DNA of 62,979 nt from a virus, in IMG/VR virus record IMGVR_UViG_3300023216_001509, one strand, 5' to 3'. Of the stretch, positions 1-36,949 are shown piece by piece. Every line of letters starts with the position of its first letter. The stretch's first letter is position 1. A program made the position numbers and the translations under genes. The notes under the pieces were generated by a model. That model worked only from the letters and a program-made list of their open reading frames with translations. It was not told the origin of the DNA and ran no database searches.

Positions 1-42
1 GTGTTTGCAGGGGGTTTCCCAGGTGGCGGGCAAATCGGATCG
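1..42. repeat. Terminal overlap, copy 1 (identical to 62938-62979)
   Basis: gtgtttgcagggggtttcccaggtggcgggcaaatcggatcg occurs at both ends of the window. This implies a circular assembly or a short direct terminal redundancy, so the window is a complete replicon. Confidence 0.9.
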
Positions 43-65
43 GATCGGATCGGATCGGATCGGAT
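36..65 (+). repeat. (CGGAT)x6 pentanucleotide array with 5 GATC sites; inverted partner of 61687-61736
   Basis: Direct reading: cggat repeated six times without interruption. Confidence 0.95.
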
Positions 66-91
66 TTGTGGGGATTTCCCAGGTGGGTTTC

Positions 92-10100: not shown

Positions 10101-10639
10101 TGACGGGTGGAATGGAACCAGGTGTTTTGGATGAAGTGGTGCAGCGTAACAAGGAAGCGGAGGAGCAAGGCACCGCCACCACCAATCTAATAACCGGCGA
10201 GCAAAACGAAGTCTTCGAATCCCGCCCAGGTGATCCTGAGATGGGCATGTTCCAAGGCGGGGCAGTGACGCAGGCGGACATCAACCGGATGAATTATACG
10301 GGGCAGGACACGACCGAGATGCAGAAACAATTCGATCAGGCCCAGGCGGCAAAGGCGGGGACACCTTCTGCGACCCCCGGCCGCGATGCCATGGACGAGA
10401 TGCAGAAACAATACGACGTGGTGGCCAAGCCAATGACGTCGATGATGACCGATAAGCAGGCAGGCATACTTCAGCTCAGGGACAGGCCAGGCGACCCCAA
10501 TCTTAAAAAGACACCAGGCGGTCTCCCGGAGGCTGAAGAATTGACCTCGATGGACGAGGCGTTGCAACAGATCAACGAGAACACCGCCGGCATGCAGGGG
10601 CAGCAGCTTGTGGTTATTTCCCCAGCGGAGATTTCATAA
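7157..10639 (+). CDS. Tape measure protein
   Basis: 1160 aa directly after G/G-T. Contains a central cluster of hydrophobic helices and long Ala/Glu/Lys coiled-coil stretches. Confidence 0.9.
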   Translation: MASEIEELVVKIAGDAKALEKALKQSEKAVKNFAQKTGASLKKVGKGMQNVGGAMTKYITAPLLAFAGIGIHAFAKFNDNMTKSTAIMRDEFGNTLSKEVIGKMEEAAILIGETTVTSSVDAAEAYFFLASAGLSAAQAIEALPIVNNLAIAGAFDLATATDLLTDAQSALGLMTGSTAQKMENMIRVSDVLVKANTMANATVAQFSTSLTSKAGAALKSFNKDVEEGVAVLAAMADQGVKAQLAGNNLNRMITLLGQAAQRNAADHKRLGFEVFDAAGKMNNLGQIIGQLEQITTDMTDEQLTATLAMLGFQAETQAVIMPLLGTSATIAEYEEALRSAGGMTEDVANDQMKSFSAQMKILWNQIRNLAMELGKKLAPAITWVAKKIQGAIEWYKKQSEWVKTTMFWVGVLAAALGPLLMIVGTLIVMIGGTVAAWGAMTAAMGATSVTGVILTAVQWALNAAMAAMPFAIFLMAAAAVIALSVWIYKSNKAMQDFNKEMERGKKLNDQLKEMREGDEKKVDKEISEIKDPKKKIEALNAELERSTKNMKGYQFQVKNSTNEAAKLAPTWKSGWQAGKKLHEASLVTLAESEERLENQVERQKELKEQLEAAKEEQAELNALQVSTGITTQQEMLLVSDQIAALNEMNDSLALQEQTVGMTKDEIELYKAAQAGANEQTMATLQAIADENTAMRESIKAKEKAAAAAKELEEKAEKAGEAAAGLTEKYSEQVAIFGMNSREAAIYKLEVAGATEADLEQARALDMKLTELEKNKKLMKQGEAITKKLRTEEQKLADSEKELSDMLAAGAIDLDTYERGMVKLHEETKKDFKVKFKVSGVEGVIAGTADAAARLEEFRTLAKKQKEDPPIDFRGQGQDIQSSGLAKRFGEAVTGTEADKALATAQANEKKRQEEEAAKAKELADAREAERKAAEDEIVRQVNERKAVSKMTHAQLFQVYGREVGEQIADLKARAMPIPAELLTGGMEPGVLDEVVQRNKEAEEQGTATTNLITGEQNEVFESRPGDPEMGMFQGGAVTQADINRMNYTGQDTTEMQKQFDQAQAAKAGTPSATPGRDAMDEMQKQYDVVAKPMTSMMTDKQAGILQLRDRPGDPNLKKTPGGLPEAEELTSMDEALQQINENTAGMQGQQLVVISPAEIS

Positions 10640-11526
10640 TGGGAATGTCTGTTCAAGGAGCGTTGAAATGGTCATGCAGTCGTGATACGAAAGGCGACCG
10701 GACTTACAGAGTGTCGTGGCTGGTTAGATCGAATGATGTATACGATGGCCCTGCCCACGCCATTACCGCTTCCGGTTTGCCGCAGGTGGGTTCAACGTGG
10801 CAAGCGGGAAATGATTATGATGTTTGGGCGTTCTGTACGCCGGAAACTTCCGCCTCCCCTCTTCAAAGTAAGGAAAGAGGATATTATTGGGTGGTCGAAA
10901 ACACCTTCACCACCAAGCCACAGAACAGATGCCAGAATGCCTCGATTGAAAACCCCCTGCAGGAACCTGCTGAAATCAGTGGCAGCTTCGTGAAGTATTC
11001 TAAAGAGGTCGACAAGGACAAGGACGACAACCCAATCGAAACAAGCAGCCATGAAATCATTCGTGGGCCAGTGGTGGAGTTCGATCAAAACCGCGCCACC
11101 GTTTCCATCAAAGGAAACATTCTTACCCTCCCGCTGGAAATGTTTACGGACATGATCGACAAGGTGAATGACGCGACCTTGTGGGGACTGGCGAAAAGGA
11201 AAGTGAAGTTGTCCAATGTGAGCTGGGCGCGGGTGCTCTATGGGACTTGTTTCTTCTATTACACTGTCACCTATGAATTCGATATCGACTTCGAAACTTT
11301 TGACCGCACAACCTTGGACGAGGGAACCAGAGTGCTCACCAAGGGCGGCGACAAGGACAACAAGAATGATTTCGAACTTTACAAAGACGTGAACGGGGAG
11401 AACACGAGGGTTTTCCTGAACGGGGAAGGTGAGAAGTTGGGGGATGGTGAAGACCCTATTGAAATCGAAATCAAGTATTATGAGGAAGCGAATTTCCTGC
11501 AGTTGGGCATTCCCACCTCATTATGA
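10639..11526 (+). CDS. Distal tail / baseplate protein candidate
   Basis: 295 aa. Start overlaps the tape measure stop (TAATG). Call is positional only. Confidence 0.35.
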   Translation: MGMSVQGALKWSCSRDTKGDRTYRVSWLVRSNDVYDGPAHAITASGLPQVGSTWQAGNDYDVWAFCTPETSASPLQSKERGYYWVVENTFTTKPQNRCQNASIENPLQEPAEISGSFVKYSKEVDKDKDDNPIETSSHEIIRGPVVEFDQNRATVSIKGNILTLPLEMFTDMIDKVNDATLWGLAKRKVKLSNVSWARVLYGTCFFYYTVTYEFDIDFETFDRTTLDEGTRVLTKGGDKDNKNDFELYKDVNGENTRVFLNGEGEKLGDGEDPIEIEIKYYEEANFLQLGIPTSL

Positions 11527-11539
11527 TTAGGGGACTAAG

Positions 11540-12022
11540 ATGGAAGACAAACAGATTCAAGCTGCTATAGATAAAATGATTCCCATCGAGGAAATGAGGC
11601 AAGGGGCAACCAATGACCACGATCGTTTGACAGTTAAGTTGGAGGTCTATTATGAGCAGTCTGAATTTGACCCTGCCCAGGTGTCGTGCAGCTTTGTTCA
11701 GTTGCTTCCCCAGTCCCAAGATCAAATCTACGTCCGCCGAATTTTAGTGGGGCCAGAATGGCAGGCGTTGGACATAGGGTGGGTGAAGGAGGTTGGTTTC
11801 ATCCTTGTGGAAAACAGACCGAAACGATTCCAAGCAATGCCAACCGAAGAGGAACAGGCGGAGGTAGAGAAAAAGGTGTTGAGTATTCGAAACAGTGAGG
11901 CCAGTGAATGGCCGATTGCTTCCGGAGCATTCTTCTTCGGCAAGCCCCAAGATATTAGCACCGTGCAGATTCGTTGTCTGTCCGGTGAGACCCAGGCCGT
12001 TGTGAATATCTTCCCAGGTTAA
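11540..12022 (+). CDS. Hypothetical tail-tip protein
   Basis: 160-aa ORF between the distal tail candidate and the fibre candidate. Confidence 0.3.
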   Translation: MEDKQIQAAIDKMIPIEEMRQGATNDHDRLTVKLEVYYEQSEFDPAQVSCSFVQLLPQSQDQIYVRRILVGPEWQALDIGWVKEVGFILVENRPKRFQAMPTEEEQAEVEKKVLSIRNSEASEWPIASGAFFFGKPQDISTVQIRCLSGETQAVVNIFPG

Positions 12023-12023: not shown

Positions 12024-15000
12024 ATGGCAGGCGGCAACCAATACTTTCTGAACGAAAAAGACAAGGAACGCATCCTTGCCGCCCTCACCCGTTTAGACAA
12101 TACGCGGCAGGATGGGATTACGCCCTACGTCCCACCAGGTGACCCACGGGCGCCCGAAGTTTATGTCGGCATTCTGCCTTGTGGTGAAGAAATCCCCAAG
12201 CGGGAAGGTGACACTCCAGGAGTGGCCAAGGTTTGTCTTTATAAGATGGTCGGAACTGCTGCCGGCCAACCCATCATCGGCCCGGGCGGTGTTCCCGAAG
12301 AGGAGCCGGAAACTCCCCCTGACGACTCGCCGGGGCAGACGTACAAGTTGGAACCTGTTGTTGATTTACAAGACCCACCAGTTCAAATCCGAGTCGATGT
12401 CTATAACATTTATGATGAGCCAGTTACGGACGGAGAACATTACATTCGACTGCAGCGGGATAAATATGGTCGATGGTTAAACGAACGGCCGCAAGATTCA
12501 GCGCCTCCTCCTGCTGTGACCAATGATAGTATCAATCCAATTGAAAATGCCTGCACCGGAATTTGCGTTTGGGTCTGGGATGAGCTGGCTTTTGAGTGGG
12601 TTCCCGATCAAGAAAACGCCAACGCTTGTAGCAATCCACCAGGGACAACCCAAACAACAGAAGACCCATGTGCGGCGATGGCCTCGTCAGGGGATTGCTC
12701 TTGTTGTCCGGGCATTGACCCGTACACGAACACAAGCACCACGGCCGCGCCCACCACCACCACCCTTGATCCAGATGAATTTGTTTGCGTGTGCCAGTAT
12801 CCATTGCACTGCGGAATTACTGATCAGGAAATTACCGAAACAAGTTGTTCGGTCGGAGAAAATACGCCGGACTTGGATTGCACCACCACCCTCACCACGG
12901 GCGACCCGGACACCACCACCACGCCGGATTGTAATTGCGATACGTCAACCACTCTCGGGCAGTGCGGGAACGGATGTGATTGGAAAGCGGTTCCGGTGTG
13001 GATGGGTGGTGGCGGGTGGGCTTGGGCCAATACATCTAACGATTGCGCTCCACATTGCCCTTGCCCCTACCCGGATAAAATCCCCGATTGCAATACAGAC
13101 CATACCAATTGCGTCCCGCTTCCACCGCCAGGACCTCCAGGTCCCGCGCCACCATGCCAAGGCGGCTGCCACTTCATTTACACTGCCGTGGGCGGCAACT
13201 GGATTCTGATTGACCACGACTGTTCCCAGTTGGCTTGGTGTCACGGGGTATGGGCGTCGAATCAAGGTGACTGCTGCACCTGCGTGTATCCTTCTTACAC
13301 CGGCCAGGATTGCGAGCAGGCCAGCACTGGCTGCGTAATGCCGCCGGCAAACTCAACAACGCAAGACCCATGCGCCCCATGCTATTCAAGTACCACCACA
13401 CCAGGCCCAACCACTTCATCGACAACCACATCCTGCAACCCTTGTTCTGCTTGTACTTATCCAGATGAGAAATGCTGCTACAACTATTCCACGGAATGTG
13501 AGCAGTGGGTTTTGGTACTTGACCTGTGCGAACCTGAAGGCTGTGTTGATTGCAAGACCTCCCTCGACGACGCCCCACCCTTTACCAGTGGATCAGGATT
13601 TACGAAATGCATCCCATGTAGCGGCGTGGCCCCCGAGCCACCTCCAGACCCATGTGAGGAGGAAGGCGCCAAGTGTGACACGGGAACTGATTGCGCAAGA
13701 TGCAAGTGGAAATGGAGTTGCGATTGTGACCCGCCGGCGTGGGTGGAAATTCAAATGCCTTGTGAAGGGAATTGCCCATGCTCTTATCCGGATTATGAAT
13801 GCAATCGTTCCTATACAGAATGGGAGCGGTGCGGAAGTGACCCGTCGATGACAATCGAAACAACAGAGGCACCAGTATGCAACCAGGTGTATTCCAATTT
13901 CTGCCTCTCGCAGAATACGTCCACCACCCTCGCGCCAACCACCACCACCACCGCAGAACCAACCACCACGGACACCACGATCACAACTTGCGACCCAACC
14001 ACCACTGCACCTCCGGTAACGCCAGCCCCCACCACCACTGAATGCCCCACATCCACCACCACCACGGCCACATCCACAACTTCAACTTCTTGCAATCCTG
14101 CTCCCGGTTGTTCGGAACCAGTTGATCCAAATTACCCATGCGGGAACCCGCCCTTCGATCCCGCGTTTTGGAGCACCTGTTGCTGCCACGGGCCATGCTG
14201 CGTCTATGCGAAGAACCCTGATCCGGTCTGCTTCGTTGGCGAAGGCGCGTTCATGAATTGCACCAACAACTCCACCGTCTGGCATTGTAATGCGGAAGGC
14301 GGAGCGTGTTGTGACCCGGATGGGGCGGAGGAATGTGATGTCTATTTCTTGGGGGAGGGTTACACTTGCGAAGATTGCCCAGAGGGTTGGACAGGGATTA
14401 CGTCCACCACCACCACTCCATCCCCCGAGACGGGCGCGTGCTGTTGGGATCATGGTGAGGAATGTACAGATGGTTTGACTTATGGTGCCTGTTCGATCAA
14501 GGACGATTCCATTGAATGGCGGCAGGACACCTTCTGCGCCTCGTTTACTTGTCCGACCACCCTGCAACCAGACGAGGGTGCTTGCTGTTACAATTACGGG
14601 AGTTGCACTCCACGCGAACAAGTGAATTGCCAAGGGGCAGGTGAATTATGGTATGAGGACAAGCGATGCGACCAGGTGGATTGCCCAACAACCATCGCGC
14701 CCGGGGATGGTGCCTGTTGTTACGACAACGGTTCTTGTAACGTCGAGACACAAGTAAACTGCCAAACACGTCCGGGCTTCGATGAATGGCACGATGGCGT
14801 CGGTTGTGCAGCGGTGACTTGCCCGCCTTGTGATTGCTCCGAAGAGGCCTGCACTTATATTTGGACATGCGACCCGTTTGATTGCGCGGGGACTGGGAGC
14901 TGGTCAATATACGCCCCCGGCGACAACAGTTGCACCGACCCGCCAGGATGCAATGAGACTTGCGAATGTACTCCGCCGTCCTCACCCGGAAGTTCACCCA

Positions 15001-15041
15001 TGGAGCAGGGAAGCGGAACTTGTATAAACATCAGTCCTTAA
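12024..15041 (+). CDS. Tail fibre / receptor-binding candidate, extremely Cys- and Thr-rich
   Basis: 1005 aa. The first ~170 aa are ordinary. The remainder has about 100 Cys (by-eye count 104), poly-Thr linkers, and two reiterated Cys modules (GACCxxxGxC...VNCQ and CxC(P/S)YPD). Confidence 0.55.
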   Translation: MAGGNQYFLNEKDKERILAALTRLDNTRQDGITPYVPPGDPRAPEVYVGILPCGEEIPKREGDTPGVAKVCLYKMVGTAAGQPIIGPGGVPEEEPETPPDDSPGQTYKLEPVVDLQDPPVQIRVDVYNIYDEPVTDGEHYIRLQRDKYGRWLNERPQDSAPPPAVTNDSINPIENACTGICVWVWDELAFEWVPDQENANACSNPPGTTQTTEDPCAAMASSGDCSCCPGIDPYTNTSTTAAPTTTTLDPDEFVCVCQYPLHCGITDQEITETSCSVGENTPDLDCTTTLTTGDPDTTTTPDCNCDTSTTLGQCGNGCDWKAVPVWMGGGGWAWANTSNDCAPHCPCPYPDKIPDCNTDHTNCVPLPPPGPPGPAPPCQGGCHFIYTAVGGNWILIDHDCSQLAWCHGVWASNQGDCCTCVYPSYTGQDCEQASTGCVMPPANSTTQDPCAPCYSSTTTPGPTTSSTTTSCNPCSACTYPDEKCCYNYSTECEQWVLVLDLCEPEGCVDCKTSLDDAPPFTSGSGFTKCIPCSGVAPEPPPDPCEEEGAKCDTGTDCARCKWKWSCDCDPPAWVEIQMPCEGNCPCSYPDYECNRSYTEWERCGSDPSMTIETTEAPVCNQVYSNFCLSQNTSTTLAPTTTTTAEPTTTDTTITTCDPTTTAPPVTPAPTTTECPTSTTTTATSTTSTSCNPAPGCSEPVDPNYPCGNPPFDPAFWSTCCCHGPCCVYAKNPDPVCFVGEGAFMNCTNNSTVWHCNAEGGACCDPDGAEECDVYFLGEGYTCEDCPEGWTGITSTTTTPSPETGACCWDHGEECTDGLTYGACSIKDDSIEWRQDTFCASFTCPTTLQPDEGACCYNYGSCTPREQVNCQGAGELWYEDKRCDQVDCPTTIAPGDGACCYDNGSCNVETQVNCQTRPGFDEWHDGVGCAAVTCPPCDCSEEACTYIWTCDPFDCAGTGSWSIYAPGDNSCTDPPGCNETCECTPPSSPGSSPMEQGSGTCINISP

Positions 15042-15065: not shown

Positions 15066-16997
15066 ATGCCGAAACTTACGATTGGAATGGCCCATTTTGA
15101 TGATTACGATGGGGTCTACTTTACGATTCAAGCGATGCGAATGTATCACCCTGAAGTGATGCAGGATGTGGAGTTTGTCGTTGTGGACAACTCGCCCAAC
15201 ACCAGGGCGGGTCAGCAGATCAAGCACATGTTTGAGGGGTTCGTTAAAGTCGGAACGGCAGGGGCCATCTATCACCCGCTGCCCGATGTCTATGGGACTT
15301 CAGTTGCTCGTGACGCAATTTTCTCCGTGGCAACTGGTGACGCTGTTCTTGTTGTTGATTGCCATGTTCTGTTGCCCGTTGGGTCTATCGCAAGACTGGT
15401 GAAGTGGTACGACGACCACCCGGACACTCGGGACATCTATTCCGGCCCGCTGTGTTATGATAACTTCCAATCTTATACCACCCACTTCAATGATCAGTGG
15501 CGGGGCGAGATGTGGGGGACGTGGGGTTCCACTTTCAGAGGGAACTGCAAGGGGCAGGAGTGTCTCTTTTCTGTTATCGAGGAGGGTATCCCATCCCCGG
15601 AAAATCCTTCCCGAGCGAAGTTTGTTTCAATGGACATGGGGCCGATTGAAATCAGCCAGTGCGGTCAGTGCGAACCTTTCCCAGACATGCTATTCGCTGG
15701 TCATGCTTTGGAGTTGTTCAAGTTGGGATATGAGTACGCTGGGGAAAGTGATGATGAGGAACCTTGGGAAACACCAGGCCACGGGTTGGGGTTGTTTTCC
15801 TGCCGGCGGGATGCGTGGTTGGGGTTCAACAAGGATGCAATCGGTTTCGGTGGCGAGGAACTTTATATCCATGAAAAGTTTCGGCAGGAAGGCGCCAAGT
15901 CTATCTGCCTTCCTTTCATGCGTTGGATGCACAGGTTCGCCCGCCCAGGTGGGGTCAAGTTCCCGCTGACCCGCTTCAACAAGGTGCGCAACTATATTCT
16001 GGAGTTCAACGAGTTGGGCCGCGACCTCGACCCCATCCACGAGCACTTCGTGAAGTCTGGTTTGATGACGCAAGATGGTTGGGATGAGTTGGTGGCAGAC
16101 CCTGTGAACACTAGGAAAGACCCTGTGAAGGATGAGGGCTGCGATGGTTGCGGCAAGAAGGTTGGCGGGATTGATTTGAAGAACCTGAAGAACTTCAGGA
16201 ACGTGGACGAAATATATGACGCACTGAAAAGTATTCCCAGGGATTTGGATCAACACCTCCCGAAACTAAAGGAACTTGCGGAACAATGCGACCACGTCAC
16301 AGAGTTCTCCCAGCGGCGGGAATCGACGATTGCCTTCCTTGCCGCCAGGCCGACGAAGTTGGTGTCCTACAATACTGAATGGGATCACGTTCAGGAACAT
16401 GCGGCGAGGTTGTGCGTGGGCGAAACGGAATACATTCACACCGTTTTCCGTTCGCACTTTGTTGATGAAATAGAAGAGACGGACATGCTGTTCATCGACT
16501 CGACGCACACCTACGCCTATCTGAAAACCGAGTTTGAGAAGTTCGCCAAACAGGTGAAGCGGTACATTGTGATTCACGATACGCTGCTCTATGGGGAACG
16601 CGGGGAAGACGCGGGGCCAGGGAAGCTGCCCGCCATGCGTGAGTTCATGAAAGAGAACCCCGAATGGTCGGTGGTACATCACACTGCGGATCAATACGGG
16701 TTGACCGTGATGGGGTGCCAGAAGGCGGACAAGCCCAAACTCCCCACCACGATTGAGATGGCGAAGAACCTAGTGAAGGCGGTGGCCGACCATGTTGCGG
16801 ACGGTGGTCGCAAAGTGTCGGACGAAACTTTCGAGAAACGGCTGTTGGTTTGTTCAACATGCCCACAACGGGTCGACACCCGTTGCACAGTTTGTGGATG
16901 TTTTATTTCCAAGAAAGCATCTTGGAAGGAGCAAGGTTGCCCGATTGGATTGTGGGAACCGGAGACCGATGAAGAAAAGGAGACCAATGATGACTGA
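15066..16997 (+). CDS. Fusion of a GT2-like glycosyltransferase and a class I SAM methyltransferase-like domain, with a terminal Cys cluster
   Basis: N-terminus LTIGMAHFDDYDGVYFTIQA...FVVVDNSP...VLVVDCH is GT2-like. The C-terminal half (MLFIDSTHTY...YIVIHDT) is Methyltransf_24-like. The tail carries CSTCPQRVDTRCTVCGC. Confidence 0.6.
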   Translation: MPKLTIGMAHFDDYDGVYFTIQAMRMYHPEVMQDVEFVVVDNSPNTRAGQQIKHMFEGFVKVGTAGAIYHPLPDVYGTSVARDAIFSVATGDAVLVVDCHVLLPVGSIARLVKWYDDHPDTRDIYSGPLCYDNFQSYTTHFNDQWRGEMWGTWGSTFRGNCKGQECLFSVIEEGIPSPENPSRAKFVSMDMGPIEISQCGQCEPFPDMLFAGHALELFKLGYEYAGESDDEEPWETPGHGLGLFSCRRDAWLGFNKDAIGFGGEELYIHEKFRQEGAKSICLPFMRWMHRFARPGGVKFPLTRFNKVRNYILEFNELGRDLDPIHEHFVKSGLMTQDGWDELVADPVNTRKDPVKDEGCDGCGKKVGGIDLKNLKNFRNVDEIYDALKSIPRDLDQHLPKLKELAEQCDHVTEFSQRRESTIAFLAARPTKLVSYNTEWDHVQEHAARLCVGETEYIHTVFRSHFVDEIEETDMLFIDSTHTYAYLKTEFEKFAKQVKRYIVIHDTLLYGERGEDAGPGKLPAMREFMKENPEWSVVHHTADQYGLTVMGCQKADKPKLPTTIEMAKNLVKAVADHVADGGRKVSDETFEKRLLVCSTCPQRVDTRCTVCGCFISKKASWKEQGCPIGLWEPETDEEKETNDD

Positions 16998-17586
16998 ACT
17001 ATACCCTCACGTTGCCGGCTGGTTATTTGATAATGAGTTTCTCATGTTGAGCGAACTCGCGAAGGGGAAAGATGTTTTGGAGGTTGGGTGTTTCCAAGGC
17101 CGCTCCACGGTGGCCCTTGCACAGACAGCGAGGCACGTCACGTCCGTGGACTATTTTCACGGGGACGATTATACCGCCTCGGTTGGGCATATTGATTCAC
17201 CTGAAGTCCGGAAGAAGGTCATGCAGGCATGGGTTGAAAATACAGAGCCATTTGAAAAGAAATGCTCTCTGTTGATGGGGGACATGTACAACATCCTCCC
17301 CCTTCTGAAACCGCTGGACTTCCAATTGATTTTCTACGACGCTGATCACACGGCGGAGGCGGTTGGGTTCTTCTTTGCTTGGTTGGACTCGCACACCCTG
17401 CCGGACGACACGGTCATTGTCTTGCACGATTACAAACCAGGGCAAGGTGAGCAATGGCAGGATGGATGTGATGTCATGGATGGCTGGCATACGAAGAGCA
17501 AGCGCCTCGCGAAGCTGGTCGGTTCCTTGATTACCTTCTCAACGAAACCTCTGCGAATCGATTCGTTCGGGGAGATGGTTCAATGA
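16987..17586 (+). CDS. Class I SAM-dependent (O-)methyltransferase
   Basis: VLEVGCFQGRST (motif I) and LIFYDADHT. The ATG at 16987 overlaps the upstream stop. Confidence 0.6.
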   Translation: MMTELYPHVAGWLFDNEFLMLSELAKGKDVLEVGCFQGRSTVALAQTARHVTSVDYFHGDDYTASVGHIDSPEVRKKVMQAWVENTEPFEKKCSLLMGDMYNILPLLKPLDFQLIFYDADHTAEAVGFFFAWLDSHTLPDDTVIVLHDYKPGQGEQWQDGCDVMDGWHTKSKRLAKLVGSLITFSTKPLRIDSFGEMVQ

Positions 17587-18377
17587 AAGTATCCTGCTTG
17601 ATGCCAACCTACAACCGCTGCCCAGACCGGCAGCATCTGGTGGACGAGGCGCTGCATTCTTTTCTCCTCCAAGACTACCCGGACAAGGAGTTGATCATTT
17701 GTAATGACACTCCCGGGCAGCAGTTAAATTTCGCTGAGGTGGAGAAGGGAATCGAGTTCTTGCAGCAGGGGGTTCGGGTGTTCAATTTGGAAACACGGTT
17801 CCCCACTTTGTCGGACAAGTTGATGTGGATGATTGAACGGGCAAGGGGCGAGGTTTTGTGTCGATGGGACGACGACGATATCTGCCTGCCCCACCGCCTA
17901 TCATATTCCATGGATAAGCTTGGCGACGATTTGGAATGGCGCCCAGGGAATTACTATTATTGCCCATTCGCGGAAACCATCTACGTTGAACATCCAGGGA
18001 ATACGCACTGCATGGCTGTCTGGCGGCGGGAGGTTTTGAATGAGATTGGTGGCTACCCACCGAAGGCCAGCGGCTGGGAAGACCAGGCATTCAATAAAGC
18101 CCTTCACCGAGCAGGTGTTTCCGAATGGCTGGGCGAGATAATTCCGGCAGAAGACATTTTCTATCTGTACCGCTGGGGTGTGAGTGACCGACACCTATCG
18201 GGGAAGGGCGGTGGGACACCGGAGGGGATGCAACGGCATTATGATCATATCGGCATCCAGGAAATTGATAAGGATTTATTCAACCTCGACCCTCACTGGC
18301 AGCAGGATTATATTGGCAGAGGGCGAGAGGGTCTGATACGTCACCGCATGGAAACTGACGGTCAGGTAGCGTCATGA
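17583..18377 (+). CDS. Glycosyltransferase family 2-like
   Basis: VSCLMPTYNRCP...LLQDYPDKELIICNDTP...RWDDDDI (DxD-like). ATGA overlap with the upstream gene. Confidence 0.7.
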   Translation: MKVSCLMPTYNRCPDRQHLVDEALHSFLLQDYPDKELIICNDTPGQQLNFAEVEKGIEFLQQGVRVFNLETRFPTLSDKLMWMIERARGEVLCRWDDDDICLPHRLSYSMDKLGDDLEWRPGNYYYCPFAETIYVEHPGNTHCMAVWRREVLNEIGGYPPKASGWEDQAFNKALHRAGVSEWLGEIIPAEDIFYLYRWGVSDRHLSGKGGGTPEGMQRHYDHIGIQEIDKDLFNLDPHWQQDYIGRGREGLIRHRMETDGQVAS

Positions 18378-26421: not shown

Positions 26422-27801
26422 CTAAATTTCCATTTCCTTTTTCTCATGCCACGTCCCATTCACGGGTGTGACTTCTGCCTCCACTTCCAGCGGAGTGATT
26501 ATCCACGGCCACGCTGCCCGCAAGTCTTCCGTCATTATTTGTTTTGCGGTGGTGAGGTAGGCACCCAACTCATCCTCATGGACATCCCCCACAATACTAT
26601 CGTGAATCTGCCCAACGATTTTAGAACGCATCCTGTTTTTGCCAAGCCATTTGTTGAGGCGGATAAGCGACCACAGCAGGCAGTGAAACGCTGACCCTTG
26701 AACCGGATAATTGATAACGTCGTTCCGCCCATAAACGCCATCGATGCGAAACCCTGTCAGGGTTGTGAACCCACCTTGTCGCAAGTATTTCTCCCACCAC
26801 TTTTTCTTCCATGCATCATAAACTTGGAACCGCTCTCCCCAGAAATTCTTCTCCACGGATTTGATGTGGTGTTCAAACGTCCCACGACGAGGGGGTTGTT
26901 TTGGATTGCAGGCGCCCAGGGAACTGATCCCGTTTTCACGCAGGTGGTCTTTGAGTGGGGTGTCCTCGATACGGTGGTTCATCTTACCGATGGCCTCCCA
27001 CAACGCCCGGGCGTTGTTGATGTAATAGTCGCCATAGAATTGTGGGAAGACGAACATATTCTTTCCGCAATACCGCATCCACTTAGAGACTTGAGTGGGG
27101 TGGCACTTGTAACACTCCGCCGCCATGTCCCGATGCATATCCTTGGAAGGGTCTTCAATATAGGAAACCATTGACGGGTCTTTGTGGTAGCAGGCAGCAA
27201 CCCGAACCTCGATGCCGCTGTAATCAATTTCGACAATGTGGTGGCCTTCACGTGGTATGAAGCAACGACGAATCACCTCGCCCATCCTTGGGTCGCGAAT
27301 AGGGAAGTTCTGGAAGTTGGGGCTGTCCGAACTGCTGCGGTAGGTTTGCACGGTGTGCAAGTTGAACACGGGATGCAAGTAACCATCACAGACCTCCCGT
27401 TTAATGCCCGCCAAGAAGGTGTTCCGAACCTTCTTTATCTTTTCCAATTCCAAGTAGCGGACAACAAACGGCTCATCAATGTTTTCAAACGAGGAACCGT
27501 CTGTCTTGGGCCTGCCGGTCTTTGTGAAGGAGGAACACTTATGCCCCATGATGTTGAATAGGATGTTCCCAAGCTGCTCCCGGCTTCCCAGGTTTGCCCG
27601 GGCGCCGTATTCCCGCCGCCAGACACGGTAGACCTCCATCCCTCTTAATTCGGCCTCCCCTGCTGCGATCTGCTGGCCTATCTCTTCGGACGTGGTGTTT
27701 AGATACTCCACATCAACCCGCATTCCATTGGCCTCGACGTTGGCCAGCGCAATGCAGCCATCGTGAAGCAATCGGTAGGCGTCAGCGGTGGTTGGTTTCA
27801 T
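26422..27801 (-). CDS. polA: Family A DNA polymerase, polymerase domain only
   Basis: Motif A DYSGIEVRVAA, motif B RYCGKNMFVFPQFYG, motif C QIHDSIV. No exonuclease motifs in this ORF. Confidence 0.9.
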   Translation of the reverse strand: MKPTTADAYRLLHDGCIALANVEANGMRVDVEYLNTTSEEIGQQIAAGEAELRGMEVYRVWRREYGARANLGSREQLGNILFNIMGHKCSSFTKTGRPKTDGSSFENIDEPFVVRYLELEKIKKVRNTFLAGIKREVCDGYLHPVFNLHTVQTYRSSSDSPNFQNFPIRDPRMGEVIRRCFIPREGHHIVEIDYSGIEVRVAACYHKDPSMVSYIEDPSKDMHRDMAAECYKCHPTQVSKWMRYCGKNMFVFPQFYGDYYINNARALWEAIGKMNHRIEDTPLKDHLRENGISSLGACNPKQPPRRGTFEHHIKSVEKNFWGERFQVYDAWKKKWWEKYLRQGGFTTLTGFRIDGVYGRNDVINYPVQGSAFHCLLWSLIRLNKWLGKNRMRSKIVGQIHDSIVGDVHEDELGAYLTTAKQIMTEDLRAAWPWIITPLEVEAEVTPVNGTWHEKKEMEI

Positions 27802-29015
27802 GGCAGCGGGTGTTCCAGGATTTCCATTTGTTTGATGGCGACCTTGTACTGCAACAGGGAATCGAGTCCGTTGTAAAGCAGCAGGTCTTTCGTTTCGATT
27901 AGATCAATCTGGTTGCTCTCCTGCCCCCTTATCCCCTGCAAGAACTTTTTGATGTGACCGTCGTAACTTGGTGCGCCCAGCAAGGCGAAGGCTTGGAACT
28001 TTATACTCGTGATTCCCGGTTGGTTGTCGATCACATGGGCTGCGAGCATGGTGTCCCAGTACCAATTCCGAACTCGATGGCCGAGGTGTCGCCGTGTCCA
28101 ACGGTCTTCGAATTTCAAGTTGCAGCCAATCTTGGGAAGTGGGGAACGCAGCAGTTCACCCACCGCTGTGACGGCGTCCCCATGCCAAGGGAAGGCGATG
28201 GTATGTTTGCCCCTCCAACAGACACTAGCGGACACAATGCGGGATTCTTTGTTGTCTGGTTTGATGCGGTCTGTTTCGTAATCAAAGGCCACCGCCCCTC
28301 CCCGTTTAATCATCTTGCGAATTTGGGCAGCAGCTTTTCTTGGTTCTTGGACAATGGTTATTTCCTTGCGGTAATCCGGAACCGTGTCCCACGGTTTGCC
28401 ATCGTGTTTTAATGCGTTGGCAATATGTTTGTTGAAATGGATTCGGAGGACTGGCGCTTTCATGTGGTTGCTGTTGATGGCGTGGTTCACATAGGCGGGC
28501 GAGTACGAAGGGCAGACCCACGCATTTAATTCCTGGCAGGGGATTTGCAAACCGAACCACCGATTTGAAACGCCAATGCTCCCCTTCCAGATATAAGGAA
28601 GTAGCGACCCCACGCCAGCGGTTCCCAAGGGGATGATCACATTGGGTTGGAGCGTGTTGATTGTCTTGATAAGGTTGGGTCGGCAGTAGTCTATCTGATC
28701 GGGGGTGGGCGGCTTGCCTCCGGTATGGCAGATCAATGCGGTTGTCACCCAGCAGTCCCGTAAGATATCTCCCGAGCATTTCCGAATGGCTGTTTCCAGT
28801 GGCAGGGAACTATTCGGTCGGGACAACAACCGCCCAGCGGTGTCGTCGTTATCACAAGGCGCCTCGTATACAATCAAAACCTTCCGCTTGCCTTGCCCCA
28901 CGGGTTCAAGTTTGGGGGACTGGCATTTCTTATACAGACCACATGCCCCGCATTTAGGAATGAGGCTTGTGGGTGGTTTTGAATCAAGAACGGAACTTGA
29001 AAAGAACCCGCTCAT
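27798..29015 (-). CDS. Fusion of a UDG family-4-like domain and a DnaQ-type 3'-5' exonuclease
   Basis: The N-terminus (CGACGLYKKC...VLIVYEAPCDNDD) resembles family-4 UDG with a non-canonical active-site motif. Exonuclease motifs are AFDYETD, NLKFEDRW and YNGLDS. ATGA overlap with the polymerase ORF. Confidence 0.65.
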   Translation of the reverse strand: MSGFFSSSVLDSKPPTSLIPKCGACGLYKKCQSPKLEPVGQGKRKVLIVYEAPCDNDDTAGRLLSRPNSSLPLETAIRKCSGDILRDCWVTTALICHTGGKPPTPDQIDYCRPNLIKTINTLQPNVIIPLGTAGVGSLLPYIWKGSIGVSNRWFGLQIPCQELNAWVCPSYSPAYVNHAINSNHMKAPVLRIHFNKHIANALKHDGKPWDTVPDYRKEITIVQEPRKAAAQIRKMIKRGGAVAFDYETDRIKPDNKESRIVSASVCWRGKHTIAFPWHGDAVTAVGELLRSPLPKIGCNLKFEDRWTRRHLGHRVRNWYWDTMLAAHVIDNQPGITSIKFQAFALLGAPSYDGHIKKFLQGIRGQESNQIDLIETKDLLLYNGLDSLLQYKVAIKQMEILEHPLP

Positions 29016-30058: not shown

Positions 30059-31207
30059 TTATTGCAAGAACCCGAACCCCTTGGGGCGGGTGCTTTGGAA
30101 TGGTTTGAGTTCAATTTGTTTTCGTGATTCCTCAAAGAACAGCAGGTTGGCAACACGGCGGTGAGTATGGTGGGTCACAATGCCCTTCGTTTCCTCTACG
30201 GGTTTCCCCTCCTCATCGTAATGCCATTCGCCCAAGGGTATGTCGAGGAACTCCAACCACTCCTCTACGATTTGCCGGTCGCCTTTAGTTAAGTTGAGGA
30301 GGTGGTATGGCGTTTTGATTTTGGGGGACTCGAACGACACCGAGATGAGATACGGTTGCCGGTCGAATACAAACTGGCCCCCACGCTTGTGCGGGACAAG
30401 GAGGTTGCCATAGGCGCCCATCTTCGTCCAACTGGTCGAATCAACGGAGTGCCAGGGATACGATGTCATCATATTAAATCCTGTGACACCGAACCCATGC
30501 ACGTCCACCGCCGGCAGTCTGTCCTTTGTATCACAAATGATATTGAAGCAGCGGTCGACCCAACCTTGGCAAGAGTCTTGCATTACACTGCCCACAAGGC
30601 CACCGAGTCCGATGTATTCGTATCCCTTTTTCAAGTAGCGTTCCAAGACACTCATTGGCGCCTTGTAATGAACAACGGGAACAGGCGTGAGGCCACGCTT
30701 CTCCAGTTCTACTTGGTTGCGCCAGGTAAGCTTGTGGGATGTTTTGTCCTTGGGCGCCTTGAGTTGGCCTCGGAAGGGAAGCACGTCGATGTTGGCATAG
30801 TGGTCAATCCCCTGCTGGTACTTGTTAATGAATTCGACGTACGAATCAACGTACGACCAGAATTCATCCGTGTCGTAGAACTCCCATTCCCCGCAACGGT
30901 TTTCCCTTGCGAACTCCTCAGCCCGTGTCCACAAGGTGAACGACCCGGAATCAAAGAAATGGCAGGATGGAACGCCCACTGGGATGTCCCTTGTCTCTAG
31001 GTGGGCGATGTCCTCCGGCCGAACCCCCTCCCGAGGTTGCCACGGTGGCGAATTGCGGCGGCTAATCTCATCCAGGATTGCTTGGAACCGTTTGGTGGGG
31101 CGCCCGCTGCCTACCATGTCATGGAAGGTCAGCATGAGAGTTGCGTCGTCGGCGAGTGTGATTTCGGGATTGCTCCTGCTGCCCTCCCCGGAATAGAAAA
31201 TGATCAT
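30059..31207 (-). CDS. dpdA: DpdA-type DNA guanine transglycosylase (TGT superfamily)
   Basis: FFDSGSFTLW, YIGLGGLVG, VHGFGVT and HSVDSTSW motifs. Adjacent to folE, queC, queE and queD. Confidence 0.75.
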   Translation of the reverse strand: MIIFYSGEGSRSNPEITLADDATLMLTFHDMVGSGRPTKRFQAILDEISRRNSPPWQPREGVRPEDIAHLETRDIPVGVPSCHFFDSGSFTLWTRAEEFARENRCGEWEFYDTDEFWSYVDSYVEFINKYQQGIDHYANIDVLPFRGQLKAPKDKTSHKLTWRNQVELEKRGLTPVPVVHYKAPMSVLERYLKKGYEYIGLGGLVGSVMQDSCQGWVDRCFNIICDTKDRLPAVDVHGFGVTGFNMMTSYPWHSVDSTSWTKMGAYGNLLVPHKRGGQFVFDRQPYLISVSFESPKIKTPYHLLNLTKGDRQIVEEWLEFLDIPLGEWHYDEEGKPVEETKGIVTHHTHRRVANLLFFEESRKQIELKPFQSTRPKGFGFLQ

Positions 31208-31211
31208 GAGG

Positions 31212-32186
31212 TTACTTTCGAATCAGCGCCATAAACTCGGCACGCACTTCCGGTTTGCGAAACACCCCCGACAAGGAGGACGTCAGCATGGTCGCGTTCT
31301 GTTTCTTAACCCCCCGTGCCACCATGCACAAGTGCTGTGCCTCCAACACGCAAGCGCTGCCCAGGCATTTGAGATGCAGGTCAAGTGCGTCTGTGATTTG
31401 CTGGCAGATGCGTTCCTGAATTTGTAATCGCCGAGCATAGATTTCTAACAAGCGGGCCAACTTGCTAATCCCAATGATCCGCCCGTTGGGGATGTAAGCA
31501 ATGTGCGCCGTCCCAAAGAACGGGATCATGTGGTGTTCACAGGTAGATTGAAATTCAATCCCACGCAACACCACCATCTCATCACTCGAGTCGTTTTCGA
31601 ATGTTTTGAATACGCTCTGGGGGTCTTGGTTGTAACCGGCAAACAACTCCCCATAAGACTTCACCACCCTTGCCGGTGTTTCCAACAACCCTTCCCGTCG
31701 TGGGTCTTCACCCAAGTATTCAAGGACGCGGACAATGTTTTCCTCTGGGCCGGTTTCACCCGACATCCTTTCCCAAGGAAACTGAACCCACTCCTGCCCG
31801 AGGTTGCTGTCCAAGTGGGTTTTGTCCACCAGGGCATAGAAGGGTTTCTCCGGATACAATTCCCGGAACTTTTTGCGGGTGGCACCCGAGTCAATGATGT
31901 CGTCGATGAACAATTGCGCCTCCTCTGGCGACTCCACCAGTTCCATGCCACCACCCGTGAACGTCCCATCTGTTAAGAGATGCGGGTGCTCACCGTACAT
32001 TTCTGATTGAACGGCCAGCGCGGCAGGGATACCACCTCTCGGAATTGGGTAGGCGCGCAGGAACGAGGTCTGCCCCTCCGCGGCGGTGGCGACCCGACCA
32101 GGTGCCTCGAGGCACATTGTGTTGACAAGGCGTTTCGCCTTCTGTTGTATGTCCGTCCATGACAGTTCAATCATTGGGTGCTCCAT
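31212..32186 (-). CDS. folE: Fusion of a Gpt-like phosphoribosyltransferase and GTP cyclohydrolase I
   Basis: N-terminal ~135 aa: PIPRGGIPAA, FIDDIIDSGATR (PRPP motif), EWVQFPWER (compare E. coli Gpt). C-terminal: GLLETPARV, STCEHHMIPF, RLQIQERI. An alternative start at 32174 gives an ATGA overlap. Confidence 0.8.
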   Translation of the reverse strand: MEHPMIELSWTDIQQKAKRLVNTMCLEAPGRVATAAEGQTSFLRAYPIPRGGIPAALAVQSEMYGEHPHLLTDGTFTGGGMELVESPEEAQLFIDDIIDSGATRKKFRELYPEKPFYALVDKTHLDSNLGQEWVQFPWERMSGETGPEENIVRVLEYLGEDPRREGLLETPARVVKSYGELFAGYNQDPQSVFKTFENDSSDEMVVLRGIEFQSTCEHHMIPFFGTAHIAYIPNGRIIGISKLARLLEIYARRLQIQERICQQITDALDLHLKCLGSACVLEAQHLCMVARGVKKQNATMLTSSLSGVFRKPEVRAEFMALIRK

Positions 32187-32875
32187 TCTTCCTTCGGTAG
32201 TATAACTCGGGATTCATATTCAATCGGGTCATCGATTTCGTTGTTGTGGAATGCTTCCAGGCGTTCTTGGCAGGCGCCACATTTCCCGCATGCCACCTCT
32301 TGGTCTTTGTAACACGTCCGGGTCAAGTTGTAGGGAACGTCATGTTGGTATCCCCACGCAATGATGGAGGTCTTGTCGCCTTGCAGGAAGGGGGCCATGA
32401 GCCGGACGTTCCCGTCTGTCCCGTGGTGGATGGCAGATTGCATGGCTTGGAAGAACTCTGGCCGGCAGTCCGGATAGATTTGATGGTCGCCAGAATGTAT
32501 CCCCAACCAGACTTCATTCGCCCCAAGGTTCCAAGCCACCCCAGCCAACACGGCAGAGAAAATTATGTTCCTCCCAGGGATGACGGTTTGCGTCATGTTT
32601 GCCTGCTCGTAATGACCTTCCGGAATATCCCCTCCCGAACTCATTAAATTGGAATTGAAGTTCGCCATCAATTCGTTCAGGGACATTAGGGTGAAGGGGA
32701 CGTTGTAATGCTGGGCAATCTTTTCGGCAGCGGCGTTCTCATAGGGGTTGTGCTTTGACCCGTAACAGAACCCAATGCACTCCACCTCCATCCCTGCCGC
32801 CAGCGCGGAGGCAAGTACCGTGGTCGAGTCCATGCCCCCACTCAAGGAAACGATTCCCGTGTCAACTCGTGCCAT
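32171..32875 (-). CDS. queC: 7-cyano-7-deazaguanine synthase
   Basis: VSLSGGMDSTT, VIPGRNIIF, and a C-terminal CGKCGACQER zinc motif. ATG at 32875 follows AAGGAGAG. Confidence 0.9.
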   Translation of the reverse strand: MARVDTGIVSLSGGMDSTTVLASALAAGMEVECIGFCYGSKHNPYENAAAEKIAQHYNVPFTLMSLNELMANFNSNLMSSGGDIPEGHYEQANMTQTVIPGRNIIFSAVLAGVAWNLGANEVWLGIHSGDHQIYPDCRPEFFQAMQSAIHHGTDGNVRLMAPFLQGDKTSIIAWGYQHDVPYNLTRTCYKDQEVACGKCGACQERLEAFHNNEIDDPIEYESRVILPKEEWSTQ

Positions 32876-32885
32876 TGCCCTCTCC

Positions 32886-33584
32886 TTATTCCAGTCCAAT
32901 AAACTTGTGCGTTTGAAGGCACAGCAAATAATCAAATCGATAGCATGATTCCAAGGCAGCTTCAACGTGTTTCTGGTTCAGCTCTGGGTCTTGTTCATCC
33001 ATTGGCTGGATGTAGATGGTGGACAGCGATTTGGCAAGATGGAGGTCTGGCGGCCGCGCTGGGGGCATGCCTCCAAGAGTTACGGTCGGCAACCCGTCCT
33101 CCTCGTCCACGAAGCCAGCAGCCAGAACATACTTCAACGCATTGATGTGAGGCAGCAACTCGGGGTGAATCTTGGGGGTCTTGGGGGAGCAAACAACAAC
33201 CACCTTTTCCCATGGAATGTTGTCGCGGTACAACACCCCATTCGTTTCGATTTGGACTCGGTAGTCAGCGGCCAGTAGCGCCACAATCATCGGGCCGATG
33301 TTTTGGCGGATGGGCTCGCCGCCGGTCAAGACGACCAATCCTGACCGACGGGTCGCCCGCACCAACTCAACCACTTCACTCGGTGAATACATTGTACGGG
33401 AACTCGTGTAATCCGTATCACAGAACGGGCATTGAAGGTTGCAACCAGCCAGGCGAATGAAAACAGAGGGCGACCCAATTTGTGGCCCCTCGCCTTGGAT
33501 GGTCAACCAGACTTTCACGATGTCGACATGCCCATCGTTCGGGGGCGCATATCCTTCGGTTGGTTGGCTGTTCACTTCCATCAT
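32886..33584 (-). CDS. queE: 7-carboxy-7-deazaguanine synthase (radical SAM)
   Basis: TIQGEGPQIGSPSVFIRLAGCNLQCPFCDT. Confidence 0.9.
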   Translation of the reverse strand: MMEVNSQPTEGYAPPNDGHVDIVKVWLTIQGEGPQIGSPSVFIRLAGCNLQCPFCDTDYTSSRTMYSPSEVVELVRATRRSGLVVLTGGEPIRQNIGPMIVALLAADYRVQIETNGVLYRDNIPWEKVVVVCSPKTPKIHPELLPHINALKYVLAAGFVDEEDGLPTVTLGGMPPARPPDLHLAKSLSTIYIQPMDEQDPELNQKHVEAALESCYRFDYLLCLQTHKFIGLE

Positions 33585-36745: not shown

Positions 36746-36949
36746 TTACCTTATTATCGGAACTTGATTTTGACTTTTCGGTGGCTTGTCCTTTATTTCT
36801 TTTCTGATGATCTTCACGTCGGGTGGTGCGTCAATTCCAATTCGGGCCTTGCCGTCGGAGTGGGTACTCACCAGCACAATTCGGGCCAGCACCTCCCCAT
36901 TTAATATCAGGTGAATTTCTTCACGCAGCCTTCTTGTCAGCACCAGCAT
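36746..36949 (-). CDS. csrA: CsrA-family RNA-binding translational regulator
   Basis: MLVLTRRLREEI...ARIGIDAPPDVKIIRKEI aligns by eye with E. coli CsrA MLILTRRVGETL...VRIGVNAPKEVSVHREEI. Confidence 0.85.
   Translation of the reverse strand: MLVLTRRLREEIHLILNGEVLARIVLVSTHSDGKARIGIDAPPDVKIIRKEIKDKPPKSQNQVPIIR

Follow-up and report, generated by a model that had tools for sequence, protein, structure and literature searches.

A Cys- and Thr-rich candidate tail fibre encoded beside a glycosyltransferase cassette in a siphophage genome

If a protein with 10% Cys is produced in a reducing cytoplasm, how would it fold and become part of a virion? This biochemical question is posed by one gene of the IMG/VR virus record IMGVR_UViG_3300023216_001509, a stretch of 62,979 nucleotides that was analysed as a whole and is called the window here. 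The gene, referred to below as the target, is an open reading frame (ORF) with an ATG start that codes for 1005 aa (12024..15041, + strand). An earlier note on this DNA had proposed a fibre with a receptor-binding role. Our reading, which we regard as an evenly balanced judgement, is that the target is a distal tail fibre or host-recognition protein in which Cys-stabilised mini-domains are carried on O-glycosylated poly-Thr linkers, and that it belongs to an uncultivated marine siphophage probably infecting Planctomycetota. The most informative new fact beyond the earlier note, which omitted these genes, is the conserved coupling of such proteins to a glycosyltransferase (GT) cassette.

A modular Cys- and Thr-rich protein in the distal tail block

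The target contains 104 Cys (10.3%), and 102 of these lie among the 835 residues past residue 170 (12.2%). It also contains 127 Thr, 116 Pro, and 25 Trp. By comparison, mean Cys content is 1.5% in the remaining 55 large ORFs of the window, with a maximum of 3.6%. The motif GACC occurs four times (aa 760, 804, 852, and 896); the last three copies begin complete 6-Cys modules of ~40 residues each (804-844, 852-888, and 896-934), while the copy at aa 760 is degenerate. CxCxYP is likewise found four times (255, 345, 418, and 584), with a CSACTYPDEKC variant at about 474, and there are 11 runs of at least four Thr or Ser residues (T/S runs). Residues 171-1005 were shuffled 5000 times with their composition kept as a control. 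The three GACC modules compare with a shuffle mean of 0.013, the three W-hairpin patterns with 0.021, the four CxCxYP motifs with 0.043, and the 11 T/S runs with 1.24. For each of the four patterns, the observed value was reached by 0 of 5000 shuffles. The Cys/Thr modular anatomy is therefore real and non-random. The earlier note had counted about 100 Cys, or about 12% after an ordinary N-terminus of ~170 aa, at least three GACC modules near the C-terminus, about five copies of a second module, and poly-Thr linkers, and all of these estimates agree with our counts.

All four Thr codons are used in the Thr tracts, and Tandem Repeats Finder reported a single (ACC)5 array. This codon diversity rules out DNA-slippage repeats as the origin of the tracts and suggests that they are kept by selection on the protein. 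Among the real genes of the window, multiple T/S tracts are found in the target alone.

An AlphaFold2 (AF2) model of aa 170-1005 was built with 20 relatives of the target. The W-hairpins, Module B, the three GACC modules, and the C-terminal module had predicted local distance difference test (pLDDT) values from the 70s to the mid-90s, and each GACC module was modelled as a beta-hairpin, a short helix, and a strand. The Thr/Pro linkers and aa 631-800 had values of 31-47. The model thus portrays the protein past its N-terminal domain as beads on a string, in which folded modules would be separated by disordered linkers. Pro/Thr/Ser tracts alternate with the Cys-rich domains at aa 287-302, 454-470, 628-689, and 791-803, and the description of the protein in the earlier note as mucin-like and disulfide-rich in appearance was accurate.

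The profile and structure searches of the modules that had been proposed earlier were run, and no well-described domain family was matched. The full target gave nothing for any Cys module against Pfam, NCBIfam, PHROGs, or PDB sequences, and nine isolated segments searched against Pfam at E<=10 gave no match for any Cys module or the N-terminal domain. With Foldseek, the model of aa 170-1005 had no match in the PDB better than E=1.7. Resemblances to the ADAM17 Cys-rich domain (E=1.7) and to the properdin TSRs (E=2.7) were rejected as non-significant, and no EGF, TSR, or disintegrin-type eukaryotic Cys repeat was found with Pfam at E<=10 or with Foldseek. The W-hairpin/CxCxYP module, the 6-Cys GACC module, and the N-terminal anchor are therefore three uncharacterised modules without a Pfam, PHROG, or PDB counterpart.

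The 20 relatives were found in a collection of 5.8 billion proteins. All but one came from metagenomic contigs of 50-85 kb; the exception is a hypothetical protein of Bremerella volcania Pan97 (Planctomycetota, Pirellulaceae). The relatives share an order of modules: a W-hairpin, a CxxCP element, a CxCxYPxFCGxxDGxCTxTxC module, and then at least two full W-hairpin/CxCxxP modules, with poly-Thr or poly-Pro tracts between them. GACC modules are present only in a subset, and a module related to the C-terminal one is present in many family members. The contigs examined also kept the gene order of tape measure protein (TMP), p295, p160, Cys/Thr protein, and a GT of ~640 aa, followed by a methyltransferase and a GT2 enzyme where these were present.

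The target comes fourth in a distal tail block of the window, after the TMP, p295, and p160. The p160 stop codon lies 1 nt ahead of the target ATG (junction TAAAATG), and the other gap in the block is 13 nt. Homologs of p295 were always located between the TMP and p160 (11 loci), and the order TMP, p295, p160, X, where X is the gene in the position of the target, was kept in 11 loci. In a further arrangement, at locus L050, a TMP-like ORF, p295, and p160 keep the same order and are accompanied by a Cys-poor relative of the N-terminal domain. The target is thus a tail-module gene downstream of the TMP, in an order conserved in at least 11 loci. Beyond the three transferase genes 3' of the target, the coding strand flips to the replication genes, which bears out the placement of the gene at the end of the tail module in the earlier note. 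No match was found for p295 in Pfam, PHROGs, the PDB, or the isolated-phage database, and p160 had no family match. That database is a GenBank-derived set of 50,697 isolated-phage records, expected to include the characterised mycobacteriophages, and tblastn against it found no match for the target, the first GT of the cassette (GT643), p295, or p160.

The N-terminal 158 residues are of ordinary composition and were modelled by AF2 as one helix (aa 11-26) followed by about six beta strands (mean pLDDT 78). No sequence match was found for this N-domain in Pfam, PHROGs, NCBIfam, or the PDB, and a Foldseek search of its model against the PDB and BFVD gave nothing below E=0.5. An OB-fold likeness among the best Foldseek matches (E>=0.5) was rejected as non-significant. 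An exhaustive profile search of 1.84 billion cluster representatives returned 1038 matches at E<=1e-3, of which 166 passed E<=1e-10 and 16 passed E<=1e-30. In these proteins, which range from 85 to 1343 aa, the domain almost always occupies residues 1 to ~135, and the C-terminal parts joined to it range from 0 to about 1200 aa. Among 134 top matches with a substantial C-terminal part, 72 were Cys/Thr-rich and the rest were of ordinary composition. The latter showed no Pfam or PHROG domain above threshold, with sub-threshold hints of Collar in one protein (P0150) and of DUF5907 in another (P0126). The target therefore belongs to a family with a conserved N-terminal domain and an exchangeable distal part. 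Interchangeable C-termini on such a domain, encoded after the TMP, are the hallmark of a tail-fibre or receptor-binding anchor, though not proof of one. For the fibre reading of the earlier note, this means that the slot in the distal tail and the anchor-like N-domain speak in its favour, while the lack of a match to a known fibre domain does not.

Another possible explanation is that the target is a non-virion glycoprotein released at lysis, which could act as a decoy, condition the host surface or matrix as an adhesin, or counter aggregation or grazing. Secretion is typical of mucin-like proteins, and the target has no homology to any structural protein. The Bremerella homolog also has a different N-terminus, with no recognisable head or tail genes within +/-10 kb. 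However, the target gene lies inside the tail operon, 1 nt behind conserved distal-tail genes, its N-domain family follows an anchor-plus-variable-tip pattern, and the window contains no alternative fibre or receptor-binding candidate ORF after the TMP. Moreover, next to the Bremerella Cys/Thr protein, on the other strand, lies a repetitive 2823-aa protein (L001:911-9382; CP036289) that matches phrog_10385, a phage-only family of unknown function, at 5e-92 in 14 stretches. This part of the Bremerella chromosome (CP036289, about 855-878 kb) may have come from a phage, as the remnant of a prophage or as another phage-derived element. Taken together, we consider a role outside the virion distinctly improbable.

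Coupling of a glycosyltransferase cassette to Thr-rich proteins

Three genes for GT643, a class I methyltransferase, and a second GT (GT2b) directly follow the target, which is the last tail gene (Table 1). GT643 consists of a GT2 (GT-A) domain, a middle region, a weak methyltransferase-like region, and a DUF6171 Cys motif. The methyltransferase-like region (residues 340-565) gave weak sub-threshold matches to the rhamnosyl O-methyltransferase/CmcI family (RMNT_CmcI) and to Methyltransf_24. In the GT domain, D98-x-H100 is invariant in GT643 and four homologs of 52-83% identity. A DxH motif is common to polypeptide GalNAc-transferases, a likeness that offers no more than a lead. The methyltransferase gene is kept after the GT gene in six loci.

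To measure the coupling, 41 viral contigs were retrieved with the GT alone as the probe. In 27 of the 41 loci, the ORF ending just upstream of the GT gene had a Cys content of 5% or more and a Thr content of 9% or more. Two loci had no upstream sequence, and the remaining 12 still had a Thr-rich ORF in this position. Examples among these 12 are ORFs of 34% Thr with a run of 17 (three loci, L041-43) and an ORF with a run of 19 (L044). After duplicates were removed, a T/S run of at least 8 was found in 25 of 37 upstream ORFs, while the remaining ORFs of these loci had such a run in only 7 of 467 cases (Fisher p ~4e-27, a value that overstates independence since the 37 loci are interrelated). Cys of at least 5% was likewise found in 25 of the 37 ORFs upstream of the GT compared to 12 of the 467 others. 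In the single control locus, L050, the N-domain protein is poor in both Cys and Thr and there is no GT.

The pair of Cys/Thr ORF and GT was also seen where the genes ahead of it are unrelated and where the protein has no N-domain, and it was present both in contigs of jumbo-phage size and on a bacterial chromosome. Because the pair recurs behind unrelated genes and N-termini, it behaves as a mobile cassette. The bacterial case is the Bremerella locus, where a GT 51% identical to GT643 over 642 residues adjoins the Cys/Thr homolog, and a GT2b homolog (1e-68) is also present.

Further variants of the locus were noted. In L050, a related siphophage, a separate ORF of 374 aa (L050:8157-9278) follows the short N-domain protein; it has 10% Cys and Gly-Thr (GTGTG) spacers instead of poly-Thr, with no GT nearby. 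The architecture looks to have been divided between two genes here and is apparently not glycosylated. Four very large contigs (L016, L019, L022, and L047; 67-388 kb) carry the same GT family behind ORFs of 900-1040 aa that are rich in Thr, Ser, and Pro and have only 3-4% Cys, and further conserved ORFs follow. The GT region in these jumbo-phage-sized contigs may be a larger glycosylation locus. When genome contigs were searched with the GT probe, only two contigs from metagenome-assembled genomes (MAGs) were found. One of them, a 6.4-kb contig labelled 'MAG: archaeon isolate ARS54' (NYZO01000004.1; L006), contains the 3' end of a Cys/Thr protein, GT643, the methyltransferase, and GT2b in the phage order, and is almost certainly a misbinned phage fragment despite its archaeal label.

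Given the coupling of the GT to Thr-rich proteins, O-glycosylated, mucin-like linkers are the best mechanistic reading, and the Thr tracts are probably O-glycosylated by the downstream cassette. No signal peptide or transmembrane (TM) segment was found in the target (maximum KD19 1.03), GT643, the methyltransferase, or GT2b, so enzymes and substrate would meet in the cytoplasm. For the same reason, periplasmic maturation, one of the options raised in the earlier note, is unlikely and was rejected. The target also has no N-terminal hydrophobic segment that would allow a mucin-like O-glycoprotein to enter a secretory pathway.

Under this reading, the N-terminal 158 residues would be the anchor that docks the target to a tail tip built by p295 and p160, and the remaining 850 residues would form a beads-on-a-string stalk. 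The beads would be small beta-hairpin mini-domains, namely the W-hairpin/CxCxYP modules and the three GACC modules, with scarcely any hydrophobic core and held together by 6-7 invariant Cys. Disordered poly-Thr and poly-Pro linkers would separate them. The co-transcribed cytoplasmic enzymes GT643, methyltransferase, and GT2b would O-glycosylate the Thr tracts before or during assembly, with GT643 proposed as the initiating or elongating GT and the sugars probably methylated by the cassette. Glycosylated in this way, the linkers would be stiffened into extended rods like those of mucins, resistant to proteases, on which the Cys modules would be displayed to the host surface.

It is also conceivable that the target is a fibre but that the cassette does not modify it. 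The three enzymes would then be late-operon cargo that alters host surface glycans or phage DNA, with a role of the seroconversion or superinfection-exclusion type, and the adjacency would be historical. Many phages carry GT2 enzymes that act on the O-antigen of their host, serotype-converting phages among them, the phage already has a DNA-modification system, and GT643 has no similarity to proven protein glycosyltransferases. On the other hand, a Thr-rich ORF lies beside this GT family in nearly every locus, including those with unrelated tail genes, the jumbo-phage contigs, and the bacterial chromosome. An adjacency that is nearly constant across unrelated contexts is hard to explain without a functional link. 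In addition, the three enzymes have zero TM segments, whereas O-antigen Gtr systems are membrane-bound, and the cassette is translationally coupled to the late structural operon. We therefore regard the cargo explanation as unlikely and prefer a cassette that acts on the Thr tracts of the target.

Host, Cys chemistry, and the weight of the reading

Assignment of the host to the Planctomycetota (Pirellulales) is suggestive, about as likely to be right as wrong, and is based on one genome with the whole cassette and two weak plasmid matches. The genome is that of B. volcania. The plasmid matches, the only two found for GT643, were both to Planctomycetota plasmids and were confined to the C-terminal region. 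No characterised phage-host system for Planctomycetota was found in literature searches, and the locus provides a genomic handle on phages of this phylum.

Core Cys columns were 88-100% conserved across 68 non-identical family members with 25-50% identity, and Module B is the best-conserved element of the family, with five Cys columns at 100%. The rare substitutes at Cys columns in these sequences were Ser, Thr, Pro, Ala, or Val, and never His or Asp. The core Cys are too invariant for covariation analysis: gain and loss gave no pairing signal beyond obvious neighbours. The GACC modules have six Cys with the spacing CC-x5-C-x7-C-x11/14-C-x4-C. In three proteins (L031, L034, and L048), 8-Cys variants gain two Cys at the same two positions, which would be the appearance expected of an extra disulfide, although these three may share one origin. 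The W-hairpin modules have seven conserved Cys each, and M1 carries a Thr-rich insertion of ~22 residues between its third Cys and the CxxCP element.

Several results weigh against the reading of the target as a glycosylated, disulfide-stabilised fibre. Searches of Pfam, PHROGs, NCBIfam, and the PDB and with Foldseek linked no part of the target to known domains of fibres, receptor-binding proteins, or tail tips, and the presence of the target in virions and its glycosylation are predictions from sequence. The Thr tracts were assigned as the acceptor from the gene neighbourhood. GT643 has no close solved structure in the PDB, and tblastn detected no similarity to mycobacteriophage GTs or to any protein of the isolated phages; homology to characterised mycobacteriophage-type GTs is therefore missing, while adjacency of the enzymes to structural genes is present. 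Two loci (L013 and L021) have an extra ORF between the Cys/Thr ORF and the GT, and the interrelation of the loci reduces the force of the coupling statistic. The host assignment draws on the single genome and the two weak plasmid matches. Total Cys counts in the 68 family members were even in 29 and odd in 39, and with no enrichment of even parity and seven Cys per W-hairpin, the idea that all Cys are in intrachain disulfides was rejected. Finally, no thiol oxidase, thioredoxin, or Dsb-like gene was recognisable in the phage genome.

Since not every Cys can be in an intrachain disulfide, the rest must be in interchain bonds, bonds between modules across the linkers, free thiols, or metal sites. 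The same protein could keep its proposed role with Cys modules that are mini-domains coordinating Zn or Fe and folding in the reducing cytoplasm, in which case each W-hairpin would be a zinc-ribbon-like unit that uses paired C-x3-C elements. This could account for a cytoplasmic product that lacks a signal peptide and comes from a phage that codes for no oxidoreductase. The C-x3-C before and the C-x3-C-x-C after the W-hairpin are reminiscent of two knuckles, and seven Cys per module together with the uneven parity indicate that not all Cys are in intrachain disulfides. However, zero His or Asp residues occur at any Cys column in the 68 sequences, no zinc-finger or ribbon match was found in Pfam or NCBIfam even at E<=10, and the spacing is C-x3-C instead of the canonical CxxC. 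The insertion in M1, between Cys3 and Cys4, would be intolerable for a knuckle, and the GACC modules lack knuckle geometry and gain their extra Cys in pairs. Metal coordination throughout the modules is thus rather unlikely. Because the phage has no recognisable oxidoreductase gene, we favour oxidation after release, with disulfides as the most likely state of the Cys in virions that have reached oxic seawater; for the W-hairpin modules, metal coordination is kept as a competing explanation.

A bolder version, which we put forward tentatively, is a dedicated phage system for mucin-type glycosylation, in which the cassette coats the poly-Thr linkers with methylated sugars and produces a glycan-decorated, cystine-knotted fibre. 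Planctomycetes take up polysaccharides by capture on surface fibres followed by internalisation. In the boldest form of this idea, the sugar coat would itself be bait, and the glycan-coated fibre could be reeled in by the nutrient-uptake apparatus of the host. The Cys/Thr stalk and the GT would then be a mobile host-range module of unrelated planctomycete phages and prophage-like elements. If the reading is true, virion glycosylation would be a widespread strategy of marine phages, beyond mycobacteriophages and giant viruses, and would be applied to the host-recognition organelle by an undescribed GT family with a poly-Thr substrate signature.

Genome context and comparison with known systems

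The features of the distal tail block, the target, and the cassette are listed in Table 1.

Table 1. Positions of the distal tail genes, the parts of the target, and the transferase cassette in the window
Feature	Position	Strand	Support or remark
TMP, 1160 aa	7157..10639	+	phrog_1533 2.4e-70; Pfam PhageMin_Tail 4.6e-26; opens the distal tail module
p295, conserved distal-tail ORF, candidate Dit/hub component	10639..11526	+	Synteny
p160, second conserved distal-tail ORF	11540..12022	+	Synteny
Target, 1005-aa Cys/Thr/Pro-rich modular protein, candidate glycosylated tail fibre	12024..15041	+	
N-terminal domain, aa 1-158	12024..12497	+	Ordinary composition; alignable across 14 relatives
W-hairpin M1, aa 177-202, CxxxCxWxW...W...C	12552..12629	+	Cys columns 81-99% conserved; AF2 beta-hairpin, pLDDT 85-91
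Module B, aa 255-286, CxCxYPxxCGxxD...TxTxC...C	12786..12881	+	pLDDT 76-89
Module A', aa 303-363, CxC + W-hairpin/CxCxYP (CAPHCPCPYPDKIPDC)	12930..13112	+	pLDDT 77-90; second module of the earlier note
Poly-Pro linker, aa 364-377, VPLPPPGPPGPAPP	13113..13154	+	Lower-confidence AF2 segment between A' and A''
Module A'', aa 378-437, W-hairpin/CxCxYP	13155..13334	+	pLDDT 93-94 for hairpin and CxC part
Thr/Ser linker, aa 454-470, YSSTTTPGPTTSSTTTS	13383..13433	+	pLDDT 31-47
Cys module, aa 471-532, CSACTYPDEKCC...WVLVLDLC...	13434..13619	+	pLDDT 79-86
W-hairpin/CxCxYP module, aa 544-603, CARCKWKWSC...CEGNCPCSYPDYEC	13653..13832	+	pLDDT 81-86
Long Pro/Thr/Ser linker, aa 628-689, with single Cys interruptions	13905..14090	+	pLDDT 31-41; codon-diverse, no DNA repeat
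Cys cluster, aa 690-790, CCCHGPCC and degenerate GACC at 760	14091..14393	+	pLDDT 31-41, low-confidence model
GACC module 1, aa 804-844, 6 Cys	14433..14555	+	AF2 hairpin-helix-strand, pLDDT 81-89
GACC module 2, aa 852-888, 6 Cys	14577..14687	+	
GACC module 3, aa 896-934, 6 Cys	14709..14825	+	
C-terminal W-hairpin-type module, aa 936-1000, ending ...GxGTC	14829..15023	+	pLDDT 87-89 for aa 980-1000
GT643, 643 aa	15066..16997	+	Pfam Glycos_transf_2 1.1e-7 (32.4 bits vs gathering threshold 23.3); DUF6171 1.7e-8
Class I methyltransferase (Methyltransf_24)	16987..17586	+	ATGATG start overlaps GT643 stop
GT2b, second GT-A glycosyltransferase (SpsA/heparosan-synthase-like)	17583..18377	+	Pfam 2.6e-14; PDB 8vh7 3e-5, 1h7l 2e-3

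The two ends of the window (1-80 and 62900-62979) share an exact overlap of 42 bp, which indicates a circularly assembled genome of ~62.9 kb; the window is thus a complete siphophage genome. Its head-side genes code for a terminase, a portal, a MuF-like protein, a protease/scaffold, and an HK97-type major capsid protein, and its replication block contains PolA, RecA, a gp32-like protein, SbcCD, and a 7-deazaguanine gene set. The window yielded no tRNA genes. Among the 50,697 isolated phages, the major capsid protein is only 37% identical to those of Brevundimonas siphophages, so the phage has no cultured relative in that collection.

Several other features of the genome were recorded. Short tandem repeats lie beside the terminal junction, (ATCGG)x6 at about 33-64 and three copies of CCCTACGTGT at about 62902-62932, and could be related to packaging or to an origin. 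The MuF-like head protein (1002 aa; 56476-59484, +) has PF04233 at aa 228-334 and a long uncharacterised C-terminal extension, and is the second-largest non-TMP protein of the phage. An M10-family zinc metallopeptidase (matrixin-like; 48835-49476, +) is encoded upstream of the terminase genes and may serve in lysis, envelope degradation, or maturation. The 7-deazaguanine (queuosine-type) set (30059-34827, -) comprises GTP cyclohydrolase I (31212-32186), QueC (32171-32965), the radical-SAM enzyme QueE (32886-33584), and PTPS/QueD (33581-34033), with Pfam labels taken from the identical contig L004. It is adjoined by a C5 DNA methylase (34030-34827, -), and an unannotated 382-aa ORF beside these genes (30059-31207, -) is a possible transglycosylase. 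The set suggests that the genomic DNA is hypermodified. The phage also encodes a CsrA homolog (PF02599; 67 aa, about 36746-36949, -; L004:1958-2161), an unusual post-transcriptional regulator for a phage to carry. In a 405-aa protein (27798-29015, -), a uracil-DNA-glycosylase-family domain is joined to a PolA 3'-5' exonuclease domain, and a separate PolA polymerase gene (26422-27801) lies directly downstream.

Among known systems, the target resembles the siphophage Dit, Tal, receptor-binding, and central fibre proteins in the position of its gene, after the TMP and two small tail ORFs, and in its conserved anchor with an exchangeable distal part. It differs from them in that neither its sequence nor its modelled fold matched Dit, Tal/gp27-like, collar, or solved tail-tip proteins, and 10% Cys and mucin-like linkers are atypical of phage fibres.

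Folded Cys-rich or binding domains that alternate with O-glycosylated Pro/Thr/Ser tracts, extended and protease-resistant, are known from mucins, fungal cellulases with linkers and carbohydrate-binding modules, and serine-rich-repeat adhesins. The adhesins have dedicated cytoplasmic GTs of the GT4 and GT8 families that are encoded beside their substrate. In contrast to the target, which has no signal peptide, these proteins are secreted (by Sec, accessory Sec, or ER-Golgi routes). They have no Pfam domain in common with it, and GT643 is of the GT2 family.

Virion glycosylation offers further precedents. Phage-encoded GTs of the mycobacteriophages Che8, Corndog, and Myrna glycosylate capsid and tail-tube subunits (Freeman et al. 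2023, in PMC12363180). As described there, these enzymes are, like the cassette reported here, sited with structural genes, and they act in the cytoplasm on the phage's own virion proteins. The acceptors named there are capsid and tail-tube subunits, whereas the acceptor proposed here is a distal fibre with a Cys-rich modular stalk. The hosts in that account are Actinobacteria and glycosylation was proven, while for the target we infer it from genes, and GT643 shows no sequence similarity. The chlorella virus enzyme PBCV-1 A064R (638 aa) has two GT domains and a methyltransferase and builds the glycan of a capsid protein (PMC7826918). GT643 resembles A064R and A111/114R as a soluble multi-domain viral enzyme, with 643 aa, a GT-A domain, and a weakly supported methyltransferase-like region, a likeness of domain layout. 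PBCV-1 differs in being a eukaryotic giant virus with atypical N-linked glycans on its major capsid protein, and GT643 carries the DUF6171 Cys motif.

Literature searches on planctomycete phages, Cys-rich fibres, and mucin-like phage proteins found no earlier description of such a system. Compared to the precedents for virion glycosylation, the distinguishing elements are a proposed acceptor in the distal tail with dedicated poly-Thr tracts, a different enzyme family, and Cys-knotted modules in the acceptor. The evidence points to a tail fibre that is probably coated with sugars and has no described counterpart among phages.

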